This document shows, one piece after another, positions 31,892-53,755 of a stretch of 64,000 nucleotides of DNA. Each line of letters opens with the position of its first letter. Positions within the stretch are counted from its first letter, which is position 1. Under the pieces are notes generated by a model. The model was not told the DNA's origin. It saw only the letters and a list, made by a program, of their open reading frames with translations, and searched no databases. This stretch comes from a virus. Made by a program: the position numbers and the translations under genes. The stretch spans positions 96,001 to 160,000 of the IMG/VR virus record IMGVR_UViG_3300025132_007963; one strand, given 5' to 3'.

Positions 31892-33688
31892 TTACAATAT
31901 ATTCCCCTTGATATCCACGTTAGGGTATTTTAATTCAAAAATATAAGTTCTTGGTGGGATTATAGATCTCCCGTCTGTGGATGTCTTTTCTTTAATATCA
32001 CAAATAGTTTCCGAATATGGCGCGCCAACTTTATTTATAATGCGGACATCCTTTACATCTAAAATGCCCTCAACGCCTTTTAAGGCAGACCAAAAATCAG
32101 ATATATACAAAGGTTCGCCTAGCTCTTTCTGTACTTTAAATTCATCTTCAATAGCTTTCGAGGCCAACCTCAATGTTGCAAACTTATTGCTTTTTGGATT
32201 AACCACCACATCATATTCTATGCCAATATTTACAATATAGCCATCTAAAATATCTATCGTATCATTAATCATCCTAACCCCATCCAGCCAAGTTTTTAAG
32301 TTATTTTTGATTGTTGGATTAGTTTTTGTCAAATGACCTTCTCTGTTTTCTGATAGTACATAAATATTTAAATTTCTTTTGAAGGAATCCGGATCTTTTT
32401 CAACGCAACAACGCTTTACTGCTCCAAATTTAGCTGGCATTGAATAAATTAAACTTTCGTAGTCTTCTCTTGTAACCGCTCTATTTTGAGTTGCAAAAGT
32501 ATTTAAAGCTCTAATCTTTATTTCTTCTGTGCTGGGTAAAGATACATCGCCTAATATTGGTTTTTCATTTGTCACTTCCAAAGATGAAACAACAAAATCT
32601 CTAGTGTCCTCTGACAATAGTGTAATATTTTTGAATTCTATAATTGGCTCCACAACTTTTGTTACGGAATTAGAAGAAGCATTAACATTGTCTTCTGTAT
32701 TAGATCTATAAACTATTCTAAGTGTTGTGCTTGATGGGGCTACGCCAAACTTATCTGTTGAACCTAGACTGGTTGGGTCTAAACTTGCATCAGAAACAAA
32801 ACTTCTGCCATGTCTCTTGAGCACAACATCGCTTGTATCTGCCAGTGATCCACTTAACAATTCTGAGTCTGACCCGTATCCAAACTGTATGAACGTTGTA
32901 TCATCATCGTGTTCAACAACAAACCTTCTTGGCACAGCGACCTTTTTCATTAAATTTGGCACGCCGTCATTTGTGCTATTTGTGTTTGGGATTGGCTTAA
33001 ACACAACATCTTGGGATAAGTGATCCACTTGTACAAATTCATGACCCTCTGAATCAAAAACAGAAACGACGTCTGCAATATTTTCACCAGGAAGCTCCAC
33101 TCTTAAAAATCTTTTAAATGCTCCAACTGTCTCAAACTCTTCCAAAAGTTCTCCAGAAACAACCTGGCCTTCGGACTTAATTGCATAATAAGTTGGTGCA
33201 CCGTTAGTTTCATCAACTCTAGCTACAATTATTTTATTTTCTGTATTAGAAAAATCAACATCTTCTAAAAGTGTAAACACGCCACCTTGATCTGAGGAGA
33301 ACCTAGTTCCTTCTTTTAGTGTAGCCGCAAATCTCATATCAGGTTCACCAGTGCTTGTAGAAGCAGGTATAAGGAGAAACAATTGTACAACGCCATAAGA
33401 GGACGGAGATTTGTTAAACTTATACCCTAATGTACGAGAGAGTTTTAGAATATTTTTATATTCAGCAGCAGTGTCTAGAAAAGATTCATTTGCTTGATAA
33501 TCCAAATAAAACGATAGCATATCTCCAATATACGCTACAGAATCTACTACAAATGAACCAAAAGATGCTTCGTTGAAGTCCTTATACGTATTTGGGTAGT
33601 ACCTTCTTGCATGCTCCAAGAGATCTCTTCTTATTGAAGTAAAGTCTCTGCTAGTATATTTTATTGGAATTATTTTATCGTCTGGCAT
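31892..33688 (-). CDS. baseplate wedge protein (T4 gp6 / baseplate J-like)
   Basis: YTSRDFTSIR..L...Y..DFNEAS...D..AY..D.LSFY.D..ANESFLDTA N-terminus; NRAVTREDY; adjacent to gp25 homologue. Confidence 0.85.
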   Translation of the reverse strand: MPDDKIIPIKYTSRDFTSIRRDLLEHARRYYPNTYKDFNEASFGSFVVDSVAYIGDMLSFYLDYQANESFLDTAAEYKNILKLSRTLGYKFNKSPSSYGVVQLFLLIPASTSTGEPDMRFAATLKEGTRFSSDQGGVFTLLEDVDFSNTENKIIVARVDETNGAPTYYAIKSEGQVVSGELLEEFETVGAFKRFLRVELPGENIADVVSVFDSEGHEFVQVDHLSQDVVFKPIPNTNSTNDGVPNLMKKVAVPRRFVVEHDDDTTFIQFGYGSDSELLSGSLADTSDVVLKRHGRSFVSDASLDPTSLGSTDKFGVAPSSTTLRIVYRSNTEDNVNASSNSVTKVVEPIIEFKNITLLSEDTRDFVVSSLEVTNEKPILGDVSLPSTEEIKIRALNTFATQNRAVTREDYESLIYSMPAKFGAVKRCCVEKDPDSFKRNLNIYVLSENREGHLTKTNPTIKNNLKTWLDGVRMINDTIDILDGYIVNIGIEYDVVVNPKSNKFATLRLASKAIEDEFKVQKELGEPLYISDFWSALKGVEGILDVKDVRIINKVGAPYSETICDIKEKTSTDGRSIIPPRTYIFELKYPNVDIKGNIL

Positions 33689-47162: not shown

Positions 47163-47699
47163 TTACTCCTTTGTGTTCCTAAGAACAAAATCTATTAAAG
47201 TTTGCACAGATGTATCTAAATCTTGTGCATCTGTATTTATAACTAAATCAGCATCTTCTGGTGCCTCGAATGGATCAGATATACCAGTAAAGTTATTAAT
47301 TCTATCTGAGTGACCTTCTGGTAGGAGAGCCCTCTTATATAAACCCTTTGGGTCTCTTTGGATTAGTGTATCTAAATTGCATTCAACGTACACAGTTTTT
47401 GCCAAAGCATTGTTTGCTTTCACTTCTTTTCGTATATCGTCGTATGGATTAATTGCAGACATTATACATATTACATTATTTCTAGACAAAACCTTACCTA
47501 CAAAAGAAAGTCTCCTAATGTTTGTATTTCTATCTTCTTTAGAAAAACCTAAGTCTCTACAAAGGCCCTCCCTATACTCGTCGCCATCTATAACCTCGAC
47601 ATTATAGCCCATTTCCCGAAGCACGTTAGCTGCAGCAAAAGTCATTGTTGATTTGCCGGCGCCACTCATACCTGTCATTTGTACAAATATACCTTTCAT
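47163..47699 (-). CDS. cysC: adenylylsulfate (APS) kinase
   Basis: P-loop GMSGAGKST; DGDEYR; LGFSKEDRNTNIRR; RDPKGLY; NFTGISDPFEAP; start likely 47699 (TAATG overlap, GGGAG spacing). Confidence 0.92.
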   Translation of the reverse strand: MKGIFVQMTGMSGAGKSTMTFAAANVLREMGYNVEVIDGDEYREGLCRDLGFSKEDRNTNIRRLSFVGKVLSRNNVICIMSAINPYDDIRKEVKANNALAKTVYVECNLDTLIQRDPKGLYKRALLPEGHSDRINNFTGISDPFEAPEDADLVINTDAQDLDTSVQTLIDFVLRNTKE

Positions 47700-48103
47700 T
47701 ACCATTCTCCCATTAAATATTGAACTACCAAATTGTGGATTGACGGATCAACATTGCCCTTCCAATCCACACTACCATCTTCTATATGTTTTCGAATACT
47801 TGTTGCCGAAATAAAACCTATGTCTTTTGGTGGCACATGTTCGTTTATCTCATAACCGACACCACGTCCATAATTCACACTTTCGACGTCTGGAATTGAT
47901 ATAGCCACAACATCATTTTCTTTATACACTTCATTGATCATGTTCAAAGTTTGTTGTGTGGTGAACGGGTTTTTATCATCTGGTGGAATATCCCTAACTG
48001 CAATCAAAATTGGTATACCCTTGGAAAGCTTTTGATCAATTAACCATTTGTGGCCATTGTGAAATGGTTGCCACCTACCTATAAACATTGCTCTTTTACT
48101 CAT
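47699..48103 (-). CDS. small HxGH nucleotidyltransferase (cytidyltransferase-like); candidate minimal ATP sulfurylase
   Basis: FIGRWQPFHNGH and ISATSIR motifs; coupled to cysC. Confidence 0.7.
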   Translation of the reverse strand: MSKRAMFIGRWQPFHNGHKWLIDQKLSKGIPILIAVRDIPPDDKNPFTTQQTLNMINEVYKENDVVAISIPDVESVNYGRGVGYEINEHVPPKDIGFISATSIRKHIEDGSVDWKGNVDPSIHNLVVQYLMGEW

Positions 48104-48941
48104 CTGTTATTGCTCTTCCTTTCAAATTTTCCCAGTCTTTCTCTGGGCGAACTTCTAGATTAGTTTTCCACGCACCATTTATAACGTTTGTGTTGATACC
48201 AACGCTTTCTGCAAATGTCATAAACGCGTTAATATCTTTTGGAAAACAACTACCTCCAAAGCCCCAGCGACCGTCCGGACCTGGTACGCTAAGGTGGGAA
48301 TCTCCAACTCTTCCATCTGCTACAAAACCCGCTAGAGCTTTATCCCAATCAACACCAATCTTGTCTGATACAAGACGCATCTCGTTTGCAAATGCGACTT
48401 TAACAGAAAAGAAAACATTATTAAAGTATTTAATAAACTCGGCGGTATCATAGTCCATTTGCATAATGTTGGAATGATTAAATCTCATCTTGTATAGACT
48501 AGCCACTTTATTTGTAAATATGTCTGGCCCTCCCAATACAATTCTAGCTTGATTTAAAAAATCATACCTAGCGTGTCTTTCTGTTAAAAACTCTGGATTA
48601 AAAACAAAATTTAAATTTGGAAATTTTTCTTTAAAAGACCGTGTTGTACCGGGGACAATTGTAGATTTTATAACCACAACATTGTCTTGTCGATCACTGT
48701 TATTTTCAATGTCTGCGAGAACCGATTCTACTATACCCAAATTTATTGAGCCATTTTTATTCATAGGAGTTGGGACGCAAACAAAAACAATGTCTGAATT
48801 AACTGTTTCTTTTAATGAGTTAGAGCTTTTATTTTTATCTTTGTCGTACACTCTAACCGGTAAGACTGGCACAAAACCAAATCCTATTGCTTGACCAACA
48901 AATCCATTGCCTATTATTCCAATGTTTTGAATATTACTCAT
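48096..48941 (-). CDS. ugd: UDP-glucose/GDP-mannose dehydrogenase family, lacking the C-terminal domain
   Basis: GNGFVG Rossmann motif; FVCVPTP; IKSTI; NPEFL; KYFNN; FGGSCFPKD (catalytic Cys); start revised to the ATG at 48941. Confidence 0.85.
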   Translation of the reverse strand: MSNIQNIGIIGNGFVGQAIGFGFVPVLPVRVYDKDKNKSSNSLKETVNSDIVFVCVPTPMNKNGSINLGIVESVLADIENNSDRQDNVVVIKSTIVPGTTRSFKEKFPNLNFVFNPEFLTERHARYDFLNQARIVLGGPDIFTNKVASLYKMRFNHSNIMQMDYDTAEFIKYFNNVFFSVKVAFANEMRLVSDKIGVDWDKALAGFVADGRVGDSHLSVPGPDGRWGFGGSCFPKDINAFMTFAESVGINTNVINGAWKTNLEVRPEKDWENLKGRAITDE

Positions 48942-49782
48942 CTTTAAACTCCATAAAACAGTCTGTAATGCCCTCAACTATATTAACTTCGGGTTTCCAA
49001 CCCAGGCTTAAAAACTCGCTGATATCTGCTTTTGTCAATCTAACATCGCCCGGGCGTTCAGCAACATATTCAAATTCTACACGGGGGAGCAAATTACTAA
49101 CAATATTTTTCATCTCGTTCAAAGAAATATTGTCTCCAGTTCCAACGTTAAAATATTTACCAATTAATTTATTGTTATTCATGTTATTCATACAAAAAAT
49201 GTTAGCGGATACAACGTCGCTCACATGAGCCATATCTCTTCGTTGTTCTCCGTCTCCTGTAATATAAGGAACTTTACCTTCTTTAATGTATCTTCTCCAG
49301 TTTGCAACACATGTTGCATATGGCCCCTCTGCTTTTTGATCTTCTGAGTATACGTTAAAGTATCTCAGCGCTACAGTCTTGAGGCCATACAGTTCATTAT
49401 ACAACAAAGTTTCTTGTTCTGTAACTAATTTAGATAAAGCATACGGACTAGCTGGGCCGGAACCGTTTCCAACAACAGAGGATGAACTAGAATATACGAC
49501 AAACGCGTTTACTTGTTTCGCAAACTCTAAAGTTATAGAGCCTGCCATAATGTTATTTTGCATAACGTGCACAGGGTTTTCTACACTATACTGTACTCTG
49601 GGAATCGCTGCCAGATGAAAGATAACATCTGGTTTAAAATTATGATGCTTTTCTTGATATCCTTCTAAAATATCCTCATTATCTTTAAGATCAATTCCCA
49701 TTACTTCGTGACCTGAAGCTGTCAATTCTCGGCACAGATGAGTGCCTATATATCCTTTGTGTCCTGTAACTAAAGCTTTCAT
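48934..49782 (-). CDS. NAD-dependent epimerase/dehydratase (extended SDR)
   Basis: GHKGYIG; SSSSV; YALSK (YxxxK); LRYFNVY; GDGEQRRD. Confidence 0.9.
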   Translation of the reverse strand: MKALVTGHKGYIGTHLCRELTASGHEVMGIDLKDNEDILEGYQEKHHNFKPDVIFHLAAIPRVQYSVENPVHVMQNNIMAGSITLEFAKQVNAFVVYSSSSSVVGNGSGPASPYALSKLVTEQETLLYNELYGLKTVALRYFNVYSEDQKAEGPYATCVANWRRYIKEGKVPYITGDGEQRRDMAHVSDVVSANIFCMNNMNNNKLIGKYFNVGTGDNISLNEMKNIVSNLLPRVEFEYVAERPGDVRLTKADISEFLSLGWKPEVNIVEGITDCFMEFKDE

Positions 49783-49790
49783 TTTATTGT

Positions 49791-50492
49791 TTAAATAATA
49801 TTCCCATAATTAAAGTCTGATAGTTGCTTGTTGAATTCTGCTAGTTGTTCACGACTGGTGCATTTGTTAACATAAGCAGTTGGGTTTCTTCCAATGTGTG
49901 CGCCATTTAAAGCTCTTTTGTCATAATTGGTATGTGTGGATTGTTTTTTTCTTTTCAAGATAGATGGGTTCCATTCATACACCCAGTCTTCTACATAATC
50001 CGGGTAGTTTGAAAAATTATGCTCTTTTTCTATCCCAAAGGTATCAACTAGTTGTTGTTGGATATTGTCAGGCTCAGTCAATAAATCCTCATATTTAATT
50101 TCAATATTTACAATATCTTTAAATTCTTTAGACTGCTTCATGCTGTCAATCCACCTCTGTGGAGTTACGTAACCACCATCAGACAATACAACATCTCTAC
50201 CATCTCTGACCACATTGATTATTCCAATCTCATTATCGATGATCTTTTTTTTCTGTTCTTTAAACTTAGTCTTATTTCTATAGTACTCATTACTAAGCAA
50301 ACAAGGAGGAAGTCTCTTTCCTATAATAAAATTATTATCAGATTCGTATTCTAGAAAATCATCTAATGATATCTCATGACCATTGAAGCCCTCTTTGTAT
50401 AGAACATCAGTGCTTTTAAATGCATAAAACATTCTTAAAAGCAAGGTTGTTCCAGTTTTTGCACATCCAGTTATAAATATTTTTTTAGACAT
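49791..50492 (-). CDS. PAPS-dependent sulfotransferase
   Basis: 5'-PSB loop GCAKTGTT; 3'-PB VVRDGRDVVLS; KYEDL; start revised to the ATG at 50492 (GGGAG SD, TAATG overlap). Confidence 0.8.
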   Translation of the reverse strand: MSKKIFITGCAKTGTTLLLRMFYAFKSTDVLYKEGFNGHEISLDDFLEYESDNNFIIGKRLPPCLLSNEYYRNKTKFKEQKKKIIDNEIGIINVVRDGRDVVLSDGGYVTPQRWIDSMKQSKEFKDIVNIEIKYEDLLTEPDNIQQQLVDTFGIEKEHNFSNYPDYVEDWVYEWNPSILKRKKQSTHTNYDKRALNGAHIGRNPTAYVNKCTSREQLAEFNKQLSDFNYGNII

Positions 50493-51109
50493 TATATCTC
50501 CCAAGTCTTATATTCAGGTAGCTTTGTTTTGTTGCTATCATGCATTCTATAGCGATAGAAGGGAATTTTTAAGTGATGTATGCTATATTTATCACCTAAT
50601 CTTTTTCTTAGCTCTTCTTCTTCCTTGTGCCTCATCTTGGGATTATAGGCTCCAAGACTAATAAATAAATCCTTACGATACATTATACCACAAGAAATGT
50701 TATCTTTTTCAGCATATTTTCTCTCAATTGTATTTTCATAATTATCTACTAAAAGATAATCAGACGACACGCAAAATGCATCATGATTTGCTTCAAGATA
50801 TCTTTTCATTATAAATGCCATATCTTTATTAATATAATCATCTGCATCAACTCTAAAAAAGAATTGCCCTTTGGCGTTCTGTATGCCTAGATTAGCAGCT
50901 GATGATACACCTGAATTTTTCTTTGTTTTAAAAAGCCTAATGTCCTCAGAGAACGGCCTTATTCTTTCAATAGAATCGTCAGTGCTACAATCATCAACAA
51001 CAATAACTTCTATGTTTACTCTTTCTTGATTAAGGCAGCTTCTTATACATCTAGTTATATAACTGCCATAATTGTAGTTTGTTATAACAATGGATACTTC
51101 TGGGATCAT
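50492..51109 (-). CDS. glycosyltransferase family 2
   Basis: VSIVITNYNY; VVDDCSTD; KNSGVSSA.N.G; RVDADD (DxD). Confidence 0.9.
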   Translation of the reverse strand: MIPEVSIVITNYNYGSYITRCIRSCLNQERVNIEVIVVDDCSTDDSIERIRPFSEDIRLFKTKKNSGVSSAANLGIQNAKGQFFFRVDADDYINKDMAFIMKRYLEANHDAFCVSSDYLLVDNYENTIERKYAEKDNISCGIMYRKDLFISLGAYNPKMRHKEEEELRKRLGDKYSIHHLKIPFYRYRMHDSNKTKLPEYKTWEI

Positions 51110-51822
51110 GTCAATCTACCATTCAATATATTTAATTCTTTTACTAAATCTTTGTATGTTTTTAAACTCGCTGCGTCAAAAGAGCAGGCATGTGCACCTT
51201 CAAATTGGGACTGAGCATTTATATTATTTGAATAGTGCTTTTCAATAATTGATGCACCTCTGTTATACGCCTCCAAAACAGCGGCTATTCCAATAGTGTG
51301 ATCACTGTATCCCGCGTATTGCTTTTCGTGAAATTGATGTGGCATCATGTTTAAATCCGGATCATATAATTTTGTAGGATATTTTGACACACAGAAGAGA
51401 TACTTTATCCTACCATTATCAAAACCAAATGGAAAGCTCAATCTTTCAATTTTTCCTGTAGAAATTATGGTTGGTTTGTTATCAGCTAATATTTTTTGAC
51501 ACAAGTCGGGACTGTCCACAACTAGCCTGCTAGCTATTTTGTGTCTTTTCATACCCACTTCTTGTGTCCACTCTAACCTCTCTTCATCAAAGATAGAGGC
51601 CATGGCTTCAATTCCTAGTGTACTACAAAAACTATACCATTTAAAAAAATCTTTTTTAGCTATATCTCTATACTTTCTATCTTGTGTACCGAAATATTTT
51701 TCTGAATCCATGAGCTGTACTTTTACAACATCTGCTCCAGCTGAAAACGCATTCAGTGTCATTCTTTTTAATTCAGATAGTGAACCATGATGCTGGTTAC
51801 ACAGATCTACTATAATTTCCAT
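51106..51822 (-). CDS. neuB: NeuB/SpsE-family nonulosonic acid synthase, TIM barrel only
   Basis: AGADVVKVQ; ASIFD; KIASR; ISTG; CVSKYPT; GYSDHT; IEKH; no C-terminal SAF domain. Confidence 0.85.
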   Translation of the reverse strand: MEIIVDLCNQHHGSLSELKRMTLNAFSAGADVVKVQLMDSEKYFGTQDRKYRDIAKKDFFKWYSFCSTLGIEAMASIFDEERLEWTQEVGMKRHKIASRLVVDSPDLCQKILADNKPTIISTGKIERLSFPFGFDNGRIKYLFCVSKYPTKLYDPDLNMMPHQFHEKQYAGYSDHTIGIAAVLEAYNRGASIIEKHYSNNINAQSQFEGAHACSFDAASLKTYKDLVKELNILNGRLT

Positions 51823-52519
51823 TTAAAAAATCTCCAATAACTTTTGGTGTTTTGCTTCTTATTTCATTCATAATTTCAGGCGTCATGTTTTTTACCTGGA
51901 AAAGCTTGCCTTTATTTAACAGCGGAGTACCCTTAGCTAACCCTGTTAATATATTATAACCGTATTCTTCCAATAAGTCAAATCCGGTAATGCAAGTTTT
52001 CATGAAAATATCCTCTGGACTATCATCGATTGTGATACCTTGCGTTTGTCTTTGTGCTATAATATTTCCAGTATCAATATTGTTGTCAACATAGTGAATT
52101 GTTGCGCCGATGCCCTTGGGGTTGTTTTCATAAATCGCCCAATACGGACTATCAACTCCGCGATATTCTTGAACTATACCTGTATGTAAATTAACAAAAC
52201 CTTTTTTTGGTATCGTGATTATTTCTGGTGGGAGTAAAGGACCACCAAAAACAAAGCCTACTTCTGGATCTAGAGATCTTAATAGTTCTTTAGTCCTACT
52301 AGAAAAAGCACTATTACCTCTGGTCGAAACAACTTGACACCATTTTGGAAAATTAATTTCTTTAAAGTATTTTGCCTCCGATCTTACAAAATCCTCATTG
52401 TCGTTTTTTTTATCAATAACTAAAACCATAGATATTTTAAGTCTTGCTTTTGATATAAGCCTGTCGATAAATGCGACATGCCTAGGGCTGTTTGATGTTA
52501 TAGCTACTATGTTTTTCAT
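51797..52519 (-). CDS. N10-formyl-THF-dependent sugar formyltransferase (N-terminal domain only)
   Basis: FVNLHTG (N-x-H), YRG, TIHYVD..IDTG (catalytic D). Confidence 0.85.
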   Translation of the reverse strand: MKNIVAITSNSPRHVAFIDRLISKARLKISMVLVIDKKNDNEDFVRSEAKYFKEINFPKWCQVVSTRGNSAFSSRTKELLRSLDPEVGFVFGGPLLPPEIITIPKKGFVNLHTGIVQEYRGVDSPYWAIYENNPKGIGATIHYVDNNIDTGNIIAQRQTQGITIDDSPEDIFMKTCITGFDLLEEYGYNILTGLAKGTPLLNKGKLFQVKNMTPEIMNEIRSKTPKVIGDFLNGNYSRSV

Positions 52520-53217
52520 AATTTTATCGGCAATCTTCCCATTCTACTAAACGCTTCACCACGATAAGAATCTATAGAGTATCCTCTAACTCTTGAAATA
52601 CCATCAATATAGGACATAATTTTATTTAAAAGGCCGTGTTGTGAAAAATACTCTTCCATTGCCTCTACTTTAAAGTTGTATGTTTCTGATATATCGACAA
52701 CAACGTCAGGGTTAGGGTGAGGATCTAGTATTTCATATGACCAGAGATCTTTAACTAAATGAGTTTGCCCTAAGTCTTCTAGTATGTTTTCTGCTGCCTT
52801 CCAGCATGCCTCTTCCACTAATGTTGAAGTTCTCTTGTGATCACGATGCTTGCATACAGAATTGTGAGTAATCACCAAATCAGGCTTAACACTTCGTATT
52901 ACTTTTATAACTTTGTGAAAAGTACTTTTTTTATTTGATACTTTCTGGCATTCTAAACCTAAAGAGTGTATCTGTGATATGCCTAATATTTTTGCTGCAG
53001 CGTTTGCTTCTTTCATCCTTGTGTCGATTATATTTTCTGGGTTTGTATTTTGTTCTATGCCTGTTGAACCATCTGTCATAAAACAAACATGTACTTCTGA
53101 TCCCTCAAGAGACCACTTCTTTATTGTCCCACCAGCACCAATTGTTTCATCATCTTGGTGAGCAGCAAATATTAAAACTTTATCTGGAGATGAAATCACG
53201 TGTTGTTCTCTTTTCAA
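52516..53217 (-). CDS. PIG-L/LmbE-family N-deacetylase
   Basis: AAHQDDETIG; MTDGS; HRDH (HxDH). Confidence 0.88.
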   Translation of the reverse strand: MKREQHVISSPDKVLIFAAHQDDETIGAGGTIKKWSLEGSEVHVCFMTDGSTGIEQNTNPENIIDTRMKEANAAAKILGISQIHSLGLECQKVSNKKSTFHKVIKVIRSVKPDLVITHNSVCKHRDHKRTSTLVEEACWKAAENILEDLGQTHLVKDLWSYEILDPHPNPDVVVDISETYNFKVEAMEEYFSQHGLLNKIMSYIDGISRVRGYSIDSYRGEAFSRMGRLPIKL

Positions 53218-53755
53218 TAAATTTTATATCTTCAACAGTGTGAACATCATGTACATCGCAAACAAACACGCCCGATTTTGTACTTAGATCTTTTTGAAAA
53301 ACATACCAATTTTTCATTATTCGAAACGCTGCATTTTGCATTAAGTTCGGACCCACGCTCATAAGCTCATTTCTATCATTTTCAATAAATGTTTTAAGTG
53401 CAGCATCAAGTGTCTCAGCTGTTATCTCTGGTGAATTCGCCTGAAGCGAAACTACAATCTCTGGAGGCCTATAAGTATTATCGATAAAGGTGACTGCAGA
53501 TCTTATTGCTTCCATCTTGTACACATGATCTCGGGCCAAGCGCGGGTCTCTATTGTGTACTCTTGCTCCGTACTCTAAAGCAACATCTTTTATCTCTGTA
53601 TCTTCTGTAGATACCCACACCGAAGTTATTAGTTTGCTTTCCTTGCAGGCTTTGATAGACCATGCTAGAAGAGGATGACCCCAAATTTTGTGTATGTTCT
53701 TGCGAGAAAGTCTTTTAGACCCACCTCGCGCAGGGATAATTGCAACGATATTCAC
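53180..53755 (-). CDS. neuA: CMP-nonulosonate synthetase (acylneuraminate cytidylyltransferase)
   Basis: AIIPARGGSKRLSRKN; VSTED; LQANSP; DVHTVED; GTG start. Confidence 0.88.
   Translation of the reverse strand: MNIVAIIPARGGSKRLSRKNIHKIWGHPLLAWSIKACKESKLITSVWVSTEDTEIKDVALEYGARVHNRDPRLARDHVYKMEAIRSAVTFIDNTYRPPEIVVSLQANSPEITAETLDAALKTFIENDRNELMSVGPNLMQNAAFRIMKNWYVFQKDLSTKSGVFVCDVHDVHTVEDIKFIEKRTTRDFISR

Follow-up and report, generated by a model that had tools for sequence, protein, structure and literature searches.

A small NadM-like nucleotidyltransferase coupled to APS kinase as a candidate third class of ATP sulfurylase in phages, bacteria and archaea

The 134-aa nucleotidyltransferase (NT) encoded next to cysC in the marine phage DNA analyzed here (a 64,000-nucleotide stretch, "the window", of a longer IMG/VR record) is probably a member of an unrecognised class of sulfate adenylyltransferase (ATP sulfurylase), a reading for which the support is genomic only and no activity data exist. 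The reading rests on the linkage of the NT family to APS kinase, by fusion or adjacency, in viruses, bacteria and archaea, and on its occurrence in genomes without either of the known ATP sulfurylases. The enzyme is the entry to all sulfate assimilation, sulfation and dissimilatory sulfate reduction, and, to our knowledge, only two types of it, Sat and CysDN, are recognised. On the wider reading, which we hold likely, if with slightly less assurance, there would be a third class, in which a NadM-derived NT of ~130 residues and an APS kinase (sometimes a short-lid one of ~150 aa) make up a PAPS synthase of ~300 residues; the pair occurs in hundreds of phage contigs, marine and freshwater, and is apparently the sole APS route in Dadabacteria, many Marinimicrobia, Omnitrophota, CPR bacteria and archaea now scored as being without sulfate activation. 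No annotation or publication naming the NT family was found, and literature searches likewise gave nothing about a NadM-like sulfurylase linked to CysC, a PAPS/sulfotransferase module in phages or the function of DUF2061.

The gene anatomy observed in the window (Table 1) agrees with a previous sequence-only reading, which had described an HxGH nucleotidyltransferase whose stop codon overlaps the start of cysC, a sulfotransferase three genes upstream and no Sat or CysDN within the window. The NT and cysC are translationally coupled via a TAATG junction, where the last A of the NT stop codon TAA is the A of the cysC start codon ATG (MKGIF...); the open frame of cysC reaches an upstream ATG at 47705, but its homologues begin with MSGIF or MKGIF. 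Residues 7-18 of the NT read FIGRWQPFHNGH and its ISATSIR motif spans residues 98-104, the complete set of motifs being G9-R10-W-Q12-P-F-H15-N-G17-H18, V-R37-D, N45-P46 and D72 in the N-terminal part, and N77-Y-G79-R80-G-V-G83-Y84 and I-S99-A-T101-S-I-R104 in the C-terminal part. In an alignment, the CysC of the window was found to have the P-loop, DGD, the R/N APS-binding motifs, S-x-x-N-P-Y and the lid.

Table 1. Genes of the NT-cysC locus and the adjoining part of the glycan cassette (positions are those of the window)
Feature	Position	Strand	Evidence or content
APS kinase CysC	47163-47699	minus	PF01583 157.9 bits; TIGR00455 equivalog 180.9 bits vs cut-off 138.7
Candidate sulfate adenylyltransferase: 134-aa HxGH nucleotidyltransferase (NT)	47699-48103	minus	PF01467 25.5 bits
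UDP-sugar dehydrogenase-like protein	48096-48977	minus	PF03721 + PF00984; N-terminal and central domains only
SDR-type NDP-sugar epimerase/dehydratase	48934-49782	minus	PF01370 143.7 bits
PAPS-dependent sulfotransferase	49791-50504, likely ATG 50492	minus	PF13469 + PF00685; GCAKTGTT, RDGRD
Upstream glycan genes, same orientation	50492-53755	minus	GT2 glycosyltransferase, NeuB-like, formyltransferase, PIG-L deacetylase, CMP-sugar synthetase (CTP_transf_3)

The sulfotransferase, which is separated from the NT by the epimerase and the UDP-sugar dehydrogenase-like gene, scores above both gathering thresholds (33.3 vs 27 bits for PF13469 and 28.4 vs 22 bits for PF00685), its two motifs being 5'-PSB-like and 3'-PB-like, and is the presumed consumer of PAPS. 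Neither Sat (PF01747) nor a CysD/CysH-type protein (PF01507) was found in the whole 192,821-bp record, itself estimated to be only 71% complete, which extends the absence beyond the window and leaves the sulfotransferase as the only visible use for PAPS in this record. The UDP-sugar dehydrogenase-like protein likely starts at MSNIQ near 48941, scores 180.8 bits with TIGR03026 (slightly below the cut-off) and is kept as a 289-aa form in related contigs. The cassette extends to ~63.4 kb with WecB-like, glycosyltransferase, formyltransferase, FkbM and SDR genes and occupies ~17 kb, all co-oriented, of this 193-kb myovirus-like record; an identical gene order is seen in several further marine contigs at ~70% protein identity, whereas GenBank phages gave no match when searched with the nucleotide sequence of the cassette. 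The record also encodes its own split RfaE I and II pair (a kinase and an HxGH-NT, at L001).

Fusion with APS kinase recurs in the NT family: among the 150 best representatives of clusters at 50% identity, 50 include an APS-kinase domain within the one protein chain, in the order kinase-NT in 39 cases and NT-kinase in 11, with all six of the fused proteins scanned scoring 160-257 bits with TIGR00455 (cut-off 138.7). The fused form is also present in cultured phages (Xylella phages Sano, Salvo and Bacata, and Stenotrophomonas phage DLP_6). A profile search of genome contigs, built on an alignment of eight NT sequences, gave 80 cellular loci, and among the 53 lying outside Dadabacteria/Thermodesulfobacteriota CysC was seen to be fused or directly adjacent, in either order, in about 50. 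The lineages concerned are Acidobacteriota, Bacteroidota, Marinimicrobia, Planctomycetota, Omnitrophota and CPR bacteria among the bacteria, and Methanosarcinales, MGIII and Woesearchaeota among the archaea. Of the viral loci, 71/80 have the kinase no more than 700 nt from the NT, in several arrangements; the converse does not always apply, since 33 out of 80 viral cysC loci lack an NT within 6 kb, and phage cysC can therefore stand alone, relying on host APS, a point that was counted against the sulfurylase reading.

The commonest families observed beside the NT-CysC pair include Sulfotransfer_3, Sulfotransfer_1, CysQ-type Inositol_P and sulfatase in cells, and Sulfotransfer_1/2/3, sugar epimerases and glycosyltransferases in viruses. 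Co-occurrence or fusion of the NT domain with cysC and sulfotransferases, proposed in the sequence-only reading as a check on its claim, is borne out by the fusions with the kinase, by these neighbours and by the presence of CysC in every one of the 48 NT-carrying genomes tested. Judged from these neighbours, the association of the family is with APS kinase, sulfotransferases and CysQ-type genes, not with NAD salvage genes (Nudix, NadV). A NADAR gene adjoins the fused gene in cultured Salvovirus phages (e.g., Xylella phage Bacata); as a hint at NAD/ADP-ribose metabolism, it was counted against the sulfurylase reading.

The distribution observed is complementary to that of the known sulfurylases: Sat or a CysD-like gene occurs in only 8 of the 48 NT-carrying genomes (Sat in 3, CysD-like in ~6), and in 51 of 52 NT-free, CysC-positive Bacteroidota controls (Fisher's exact test, p = 1e-18), the difference also being seen when only Bacteroidota are considered (1/10 NT-carrying vs 51/52 NT-free genomes, p = 5e-9). 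The controls come from a random sample of 150 Bacteroidota genomes, which had no NT carrier except the seed and was thus used only as an NT-free control; they represent a single phylum, and many of the NT-carrying genomes are incomplete MAGs/SAGs and phylogenetically clustered. The eight genomes with a Sat/CysD-like gene were themselves counted against the sulfurylase reading. Five closed Dadabacteria chromosomes were tested; all have the NT, a single canonical CysC, a sulfite reductase and a PAPS reductase of the CysH type (three of the five also have a sulfotransferase), and in none was Sat or CysD found, so that the sulfurylase step is the only one missing from their sulfate-assimilation pathway. 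The earlier proposal that the NT supplies APS to CysC is accordingly supported by fusion, adjacency, neighbours, complementary distribution and this pathway hole, all of them genomic, with catalysis itself remaining inferred.

Of the other explanations, the one that survives best, unlikely as it seems, is that the NT transfers an adenylyl or cytidylyl group to a different phosphorylated compound linked to this pathway (e.g., a sugar phosphate for the glycan, or a kinase product) as part of an HldE-like kinase-then-NT pair, with APS coming from the host. Kinase and HxGH-NT pairs of such logic do exist, the split RfaE I and II of this very phage among them, the NT does sit in a sugar-nucleotide cassette, and the specificity of some partner kinases, variants with a short lid, is uncertain. 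The partner kinases, however, score as APS-kinase equivalogs, the APS-binding motifs are retained even in the short-lid ones, and the link to the kinase holds outside any glycan cluster, including the housekeeping contexts in which the NT is found in Dadabacteria; furthermore, it would be left unexplained why genomes with both the NT and CysC so rarely have Sat or CysDN. As for the NT being the sugar-phosphate nucleotidyltransferase of the phage, this was rejected, since an RfaE-II-type enzyme and a CMP-sugar synthetase are encoded separately in this phage.

A second explanation, which we find very doubtful, is that the NT merely assists or regulates APS kinase, through nucleotide binding, stabilisation of the kinase or APS/PAPS sensing, instead of forming APS. 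In fungal Sat it is the APS-kinase-like domain that is regulatory, and the tightness of the NT-kinase fusions, the presence of Sat or CysD in some NT-carrying genomes and a much reduced fold would all be compatible with such a role: the AF2 model of the NT (pLDDT 90.9) is a single domain whose core has just three strands, an exceptionally small size for a self-standing enzyme, which was likewise counted against the sulfurylase reading. Against a mere accessory stand the closed genomes, which would be left without an APS source, and the conservation pattern, which is that of an active enzyme, as no member of the family departs from the catalytic histidines of HxGH, from R10 or from the ISxTxxR motif. 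Invariant, too, are R37, N77, G79, R80, G83 and Y84, and with every partner class the NSIW segment of NadM, presumably the nicotinamide pocket where NMN is bound, is replaced by an invariant N-x-G-R-x-x-G-Y, and the GSAQ of NadM by V-R-D.

By both sequence and fold comparison, the NT falls among the NadM/PPAT adenylyltransferases, as a derived branch, and is not a cut-down Sat. The closest relative in a PDB sequence-profile search with the NT family was NadM (61.7 bits), with no Sat among the best 60 matches; the window NT had no match to PF01747 at E <= 0.01, and the best PF01747 score of any family member (P0194) was 23.8 bits against a cut-off of 24.3. An exhaustive VIA-align search of the predicted fold put NadM 1f9a first (Z 14.4, rmsd 2.6 over 128 residues) and PPAT second (Z 13.5), with the catalytic domain of Sat, at Z 10.2 for 1v47 and Z 7-8.4 for other Sat structures, superposing over nearly the whole model; no Sat was among the matches listed by Foldseek against the PDB. 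The sequence-only reading had proposed that the NT may be a minimal ATP sulfurylase, of the HxGH superfamily to which Sat belongs, and had suggested a structural comparison with Sat and NadM: membership of the same superfamily stands and Sat 1v47 is matched, whereas NadM is the closer of the two, and descent by trimming of Sat was rejected because the nearest relatives are NMNAT and PPAT. If the NT is a sulfurylase, it therefore had an origin separate from that of Sat within the same superfamily. Its greater closeness to NMNAT/PPAT than to Sat was also entered among the points against the sulfurylase reading.

With NadM (archaeal NMNAT, M. jannaschii MJ0541, 1f9a; TIGR01527/NF002243) the NT shares the ATP-binding motifs on an HxGH Rossmann-like fold, namely G-R-x-Q-P-x-H-x-G-H, N-P-F-T and the S-x-T-x-x-R helix, but its genomic partner is APS kinase, not Nudix/NAD genes, and it is ~35 residues shorter than the NMNAT core (being without the strand-helix-strand segment before the SxT motif) and scores only 38.0 bits with TIGR01527 (cut-off 181.2) and 47.9 with NF002243 (cut-off 127), cut-offs that the fused and Dadabacteria members do not reach either. 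That the NT is an ordinary NMN/NaMN adenylyltransferase of NAD salvage, beside cysC by chance, is the least probable explanation, for although NadM NMNATs match it best in both sequence and fold, NadM-Nudix enzymes are frequent in phages and NADAR adjoins the fused homologue in Xylella phage Bacata, the scores lie far under the NMNAT cut-offs, core residues are missing and NSIW is replaced, phage NadM-Nudix proteins align only with the first ~60 NT residues, and recurrent APS-kinase fusion with sulfotransferase neighbours has no NAD rationale.

The sulfurylase reading makes Sat (PF01747; T. thermophilus 1v47, yeast MET3, human PAPSS) the counterpart of the NT in the reaction proposed; both belong to the HUP nucleotidyltransferase superfamily and both fuse with APS kinase in either order. 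An hhalign comparison of the NT family with seven Sat sequences spanned the whole domain at a low probability (16.6%), with the same order of motifs, R-x-[NQ]-P-x-H-x-x-H, N-Y-G...G-R and [IL]-S-[AG]-T-x-x-R, and paired R10/Q12/P13/H15/H18 with R-N-P-x-H-x-x-H, N77-Y-G...R80 with NYG....GRDHAG, and ISAT with LSGT. The first of these motifs (R10-x-Q12-P13-x-H15-x-x-H18) is, however, equally NadM-like, and the D-H-A of GRDHAG is missing, the Sat loop being reduced to GR-x-x-G in the NT, which also lacks the PUA-like N-terminal domain and has a catalytic unit of ~130 residues against ~210 in Sat (350-400 for the whole protein). The heterodimeric CysDN occupies the same pathway position, with CysN often fused to CysC, but CysD has an unrelated PAPS-reductase-like fold, works with a GTPase subunit and is missing from most NT-carrying genomes. 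CoaD/CoaE (PPAT and dephospho-CoA kinase, fused in COASY) likewise pair a small HxGH adenylyltransferase with a P-loop kinase acting on the 3'-OH of its product; NT-CysC differs in its kinase, an APS-kinase equivalog, and in its context, sulfation instead of CoA synthesis. Phage-encoded, transcribed cysC is known, preferentially from large phages, and has been read as part of assimilatory sulfate reduction, with no mention of a partner nucleotidyltransferase or of sulfotransferases (0 occurrences; Chen and Banfield 2024, PMC10914622).

In the mechanism we propose, the NMN/phosphopantetheine pocket of the relatives would be replaced in the NT by a short loop with the invariant R37 and R80, whose roles, like sulfate as the substrate, are inferred. 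Sulfate would attack the alpha-phosphate of ATP on the NT, giving APS and PPi, and the coupled APS kinase would phosphorylate APS to PAPS, pulling the unfavourable first step forward, as is the case where a known sulfurylase and kinase are fused (Sat-CysC, CysN-CysC, PAPSS). Physical coupling of the NT and CysC is an inference, on which co-folding of the phage NT with its CysC (score 0.00, without controls) bears neither way. The sulfotransferase of the cassette may then use PAPS to sulfate a nonulosonate-containing glycan built by the neighbouring genes, a target that is, again, inferred.

Should the sulfurylase reading prove true, metabolic reconstructions of lineages called unable to activate sulfate would need revising, and phage cysC would be part of a self-contained PAPS supply feeding sulfotransferases, not of cysteine synthesis. 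NT-CysC would then be the smallest known catalyst for the enzymatic making of PAPS, and would show how the NMNAT/PPAT scaffold has been reshaped to accept a small inorganic anion.

The nucleotidyltransferase (NT) gene lies in a locus whose genes are all encoded on the minus strand, and its stop codon TAA has one base in common with the ATG of cysC (TAATG). The sequence-only reading, which had described a small NT overlapping cysC in this manner, a sulfotransferase nearby and no Sat or CysDN, proved right in every detail, and no Sat, CysD or CysH was found in the whole 192,821-bp IMG/VR virus record either (estimated completeness of 71%), of which the window covers bases 96,001-160,000. The UDP-sugar dehydrogenase-like protein (293 aa) comprises only the N-terminal and central domains, without the C-terminal UDP-binding one; as a 289-aa form of it is kept in related phage contigs, this two-domain architecture cannot be put down to an artefactual truncation. 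Downstream of the cassette, giant structural genes and a gene for a T4-type baseplate wedge protein indicate a large tailed phage, with most of the large neighbours of the wedge gene having no PHROG match. Elsewhere, the phage encodes the two halves of a split HldE, a kinase resembling RfaE domain I and a heptose-1-phosphate adenylyltransferase resembling RfaE domain II (158 bits), which suggests that it also makes ADP-heptose.

Features of the phage locus and of the fused homologues in cultured phages (window positions unless another record or locus is named; L, locus; G000, the phage record)
Feature	Position	Strand	Remarks
NT	47699-48103	-	134-aa open frame; FIGRWQPFHNGH near the N-terminus, ISATSIR near residue 100
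CysC	47163-47699	-	TIGR00455 equivalog model, 180.9 bits (cut-off 138.7)
UDP-sugar dehydrogenase-like gene	48096-48977	-	upstream of NT, same orientation
SDR epimerase		-	upstream of NT, same orientation
Sulfotransferase		-	upstream of NT, same orientation; above Pfam gathering scores
GT2 transferase, NeuB-like, formyltransferase, PIG-L deacetylase, CMP-sugar synthetase		-	upstream, same orientation
WecB-like, glycosyltransferase, formyltransferase, FkbM, SDR genes		-	still further upstream
Giant open frames in a row	5984-42091	-	1671, 1722, 3962 and 2655 aa, around the baseplate wedge gene
T4-type baseplate wedge gene	31892-33688
Split HldE pair	L001:735-1881 (G000:C1, about 161.7-162.8 kb)		outside the window
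Fused short-kinase-NT, Xylella phage Bacata (L003)	LR743524.1 29138-29878		overlaps the end of a NADAR-domain gene
Fused short-kinase-NT, Stenotrophomonas phage DLP_6 (L004)	AAY80_227

Because the equilibrium of the sulfurylase reaction lies far towards ATP, APS kinase and pyrophosphatase are normally coupled to the enzyme, which is why fusions of the Sat-CysC and CysN-CysC kinds are seen repeatedly, and exactly the same pattern of recurrent fusion to CysC is shown by the NT family. Co-occurrence or fusion of the domain with cysC and with sulfotransferases, put forward earlier as a check of the idea that the NT supplies APS to CysC, was found for both partners. Scanned in full with HMMER, a set of 1.84 billion representatives yielded 1,219 relatives, and an APS-kinase domain is fused in 50 of the best 150 (39 kinase-NT and 11 NT-kinase); the six fusions run against NCBIfam each exceeded the APS-kinase equivalog cut-off. 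At least 553 loci on one-genome-per-species cellular contigs encode a relative; among the best 80, 27 come from Dadabacteria or Thermodesulfobacteriota, where the NT gene stands alone, while about 50 of the other 53 (Acidobacteriota, Bacteroidota, Marinimicrobia, Planctomycetota, Omnitrophota, CPR bacteria, Methanosarcinales, MGIII and Woesearchaeota) have CysC in the same polypeptide or as the next gene, in one order or the other. At least 573 IMG/VR viral stretches likewise encode a relative, and a kinase lies no more than 700 nt from the NT, in several arrangements, in 71 of the best 80. Starting from viral CysC instead, an NT was present within 6 kb at 47/80 loci and Sat at none; the remaining 33 (e.g., L187, L191, L194, L195 and L198-L202; the rest of these genomes was not covered) include cysC genes 55-67% identical to that of the window.

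Many phages, as well as Marinimicrobia, MGIII and Flavobacteriales, have short partner kinases (~150 aa) that keep the P-loop, DGD motif, R/N motifs and S-x-x-x-P-Y and are without the lid segment (DPKGLYKKA...FTG); such a kinase is the sole PF01583 match in its genomes (e.g., loci L042, L050, L054, L057, L061, L067, L003:3599-4339 and L004:3590-4321). Other fusion partners are seen too: family member P0129 carries a C-terminal DUF6717, and P0140, P0165, P0177 and P0210 (321-378 aa) have N-terminal regions of 185-245 residues without assignment.

The flanking genes (132 proteins from 33 cellular loci and 150 proteins from 38 viral ones) point to PAPS use. In cells, Sulfotransfer_3 (6) and methyltransferase models (5-6) are the commonest, ahead of Sulfotransfer_1, CysQ-type Inositol_P, UDP-sugar dehydrogenase and epimerases, each found four times, and of additional APS kinases and sulfatases, each found three times; in viruses, DUF2061 (8), Sulfotransfer_1, _2 and _3 (4, 3 and 4), epimerases and glycosyltransferases prevail. 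DUF2061 (PF09834), predicted to be a small membrane protein and seen beside the viral NT-CysC pair more often than any other family, appears fused to the CysC N-terminus at some loci (judging by the CysC-frame N-termini at L116, L118, L124 and L048) or lies between cysC and NT (spacing of 370-460 nt), and could belong to this module as well, e.g., in sulfate handling.

The distribution of the NT is complementary to that of the known sulfurylases. CysC was present in all 48 NT-carrying genomes tested, Sat in 3 and CysD or a CysD-like gene in about 6 (8 genomes with either), whereas among 150 Bacteroidota genomes drawn as a control, none with an NT and 52 with CysC, CysD was found in 40 and Sat in 12 of the CysC-positive ones, and one or the other in 51/52 (Fisher's exact p = 1e-18, the counts not being phylogenetically independent; 1/10 vs 51/52, p = 5e-9, within Bacteroidota alone). 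The lone exception, G062, lacking Sat, CysD and NT, may be an incomplete assembly or have yet another APS source. Many of the NT-carrying genomes are incomplete, but ten are records deposited as whole chromosomes; five of these ten, closed Dadabacteria genomes, each encode one canonical CysC, a CysH-type PAPS reductase (~240 aa), a sulfite reductase and an NT (and a sulfotransferase in three), with neither Sat nor CysD in any of the five, so that their sulfate assimilation is complete but for its first enzyme. It remains possible, albeit unlikely, that the pair is a kinase and a nucleotidyltransferase acting consecutively on another substrate, a reading at odds with both the equivalog-level scores of the APS kinases and the lack of Sat and CysDN.

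As to its ancestry, the NT is assigned by Pfam only to the generic CTP_transf_like family (25.5 bits), and the domain is not covered by any NCBIfam model, the NadM-type NMN adenylyltransferase models of that collection ranking first at scores far under their cut-offs (47.9 vs 127; 38 vs 181). The family profile matched the M. jannaschii NMNAT structure best in the PDB (61.7 bits), PPATs next, and Sat was not among the best 60 matches. The AlphaFold model (pLDDT 90.9), with only three core strands and a 20-residue loop (72-92) before the ISATSIR helix, retrieved NadM (Z 14.4), PPAT (13.5) and NaMNATs (10-11) ahead of T. thermophilus ATP sulfurylase (10.2) and other Sat/PAPSS domains (7-8.8). 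Comparison with Sat and NadM thus upheld the fold shared with the former but placed the latter closer, both rankings indicating a shortened offshoot of the NMNAT/PPAT branch; a trimmed Sat was rejected, even though one superfamily fold is common to all. A whole-domain profile alignment does put the NT motifs on the R-N-P-x-H-x-x-H, NYG....GRDHAG and LSGT of Sat, but at a probability of only 16.6%, and may be taken as a hint, not proof. Relative to NadM, the NT is ~35 residues shorter, with the gap before the SxT motif, and has V-R37-D and N77-x-G79-R80-x-x-G83-Y84 in place of G-S-A-Q and N-S-I-W. These residues (R37, N77, G79, R80, G83, Y84), together with R10, Q12, H15, H18, N45, P46, D72, S99, T101 and R104, are essentially invariant in 83 members from all contexts. 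A regulatory, non-catalytic partner, which we regard as improbable, fits such invariant catalytic residues poorly and would leave the origin of APS in the closed genomes unaccounted for. A plain NMNAT is scarcely credible, for despite the NADAR gene that cultured Salvovirus phages have beside their fused homologue, the scores are sub-threshold, a core segment is deleted, the pocket is replaced and the genomic context contradicts it.

No description of the family as a sulfurylase was found in the literature. Public names are "cytidyltransferase-like protein" for stand-alone members and just "adenylyl-sulfate kinase" for fusions, the fused phage form being "kinase" in PHROGs. Cultured phages carrying the fused short-kinase-NT protein (~245 aa; annotated as kinase, adenylylsulfate kinase or hypothetical protein) are Xylella phages Sano, Salvo and Bacata, Stenotrophomonas phages DLP_6, Bhz60 and Suzuki, Xanthomonas phages and Clavibacter phage 33. 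Phage cysC per se is a published auxiliary metabolic gene, read as assimilatory sulfate reduction in a study that mentions neither a neighbouring NT nor sulfotransferases (PMC10914622).

The proposal that the NT supplies APS to CysC is thus supported, if indirectly, by fusion and adjacency, genomic context and complementary distribution. Its main weaknesses are the lack of an assay, the closer kinship with NMNAT/PPAT, the eight genomes with both systems, the many viral cysC loci without a nearby NT and the Salvovirus NADAR neighbour. On this strong but indirect evidence, the NT probably represents an ATP sulfurylase class that is new, minimal and derived from NadM, forming a two-gene PAPS synthase with CysC. 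In HxGH nucleotidyltransferases, the substrate phosphate, or sulfate in Sat, attacks the NTP alpha-phosphate; by inference, ATP would be bound via R10, H15, H18, S99, T101 and R104, as in NMNAT, and sulfate would sit in a small cationic pocket formed by the family-specific R37 and the N77-G79-R80-G83 loop. The coupled CysC of the phage would receive the APS, a physical NT-CysC complex being inferred, and the resulting PAPS would be used by the cassette sulfotransferase to decorate what is presumed to be a nonulosonate-containing glycan.
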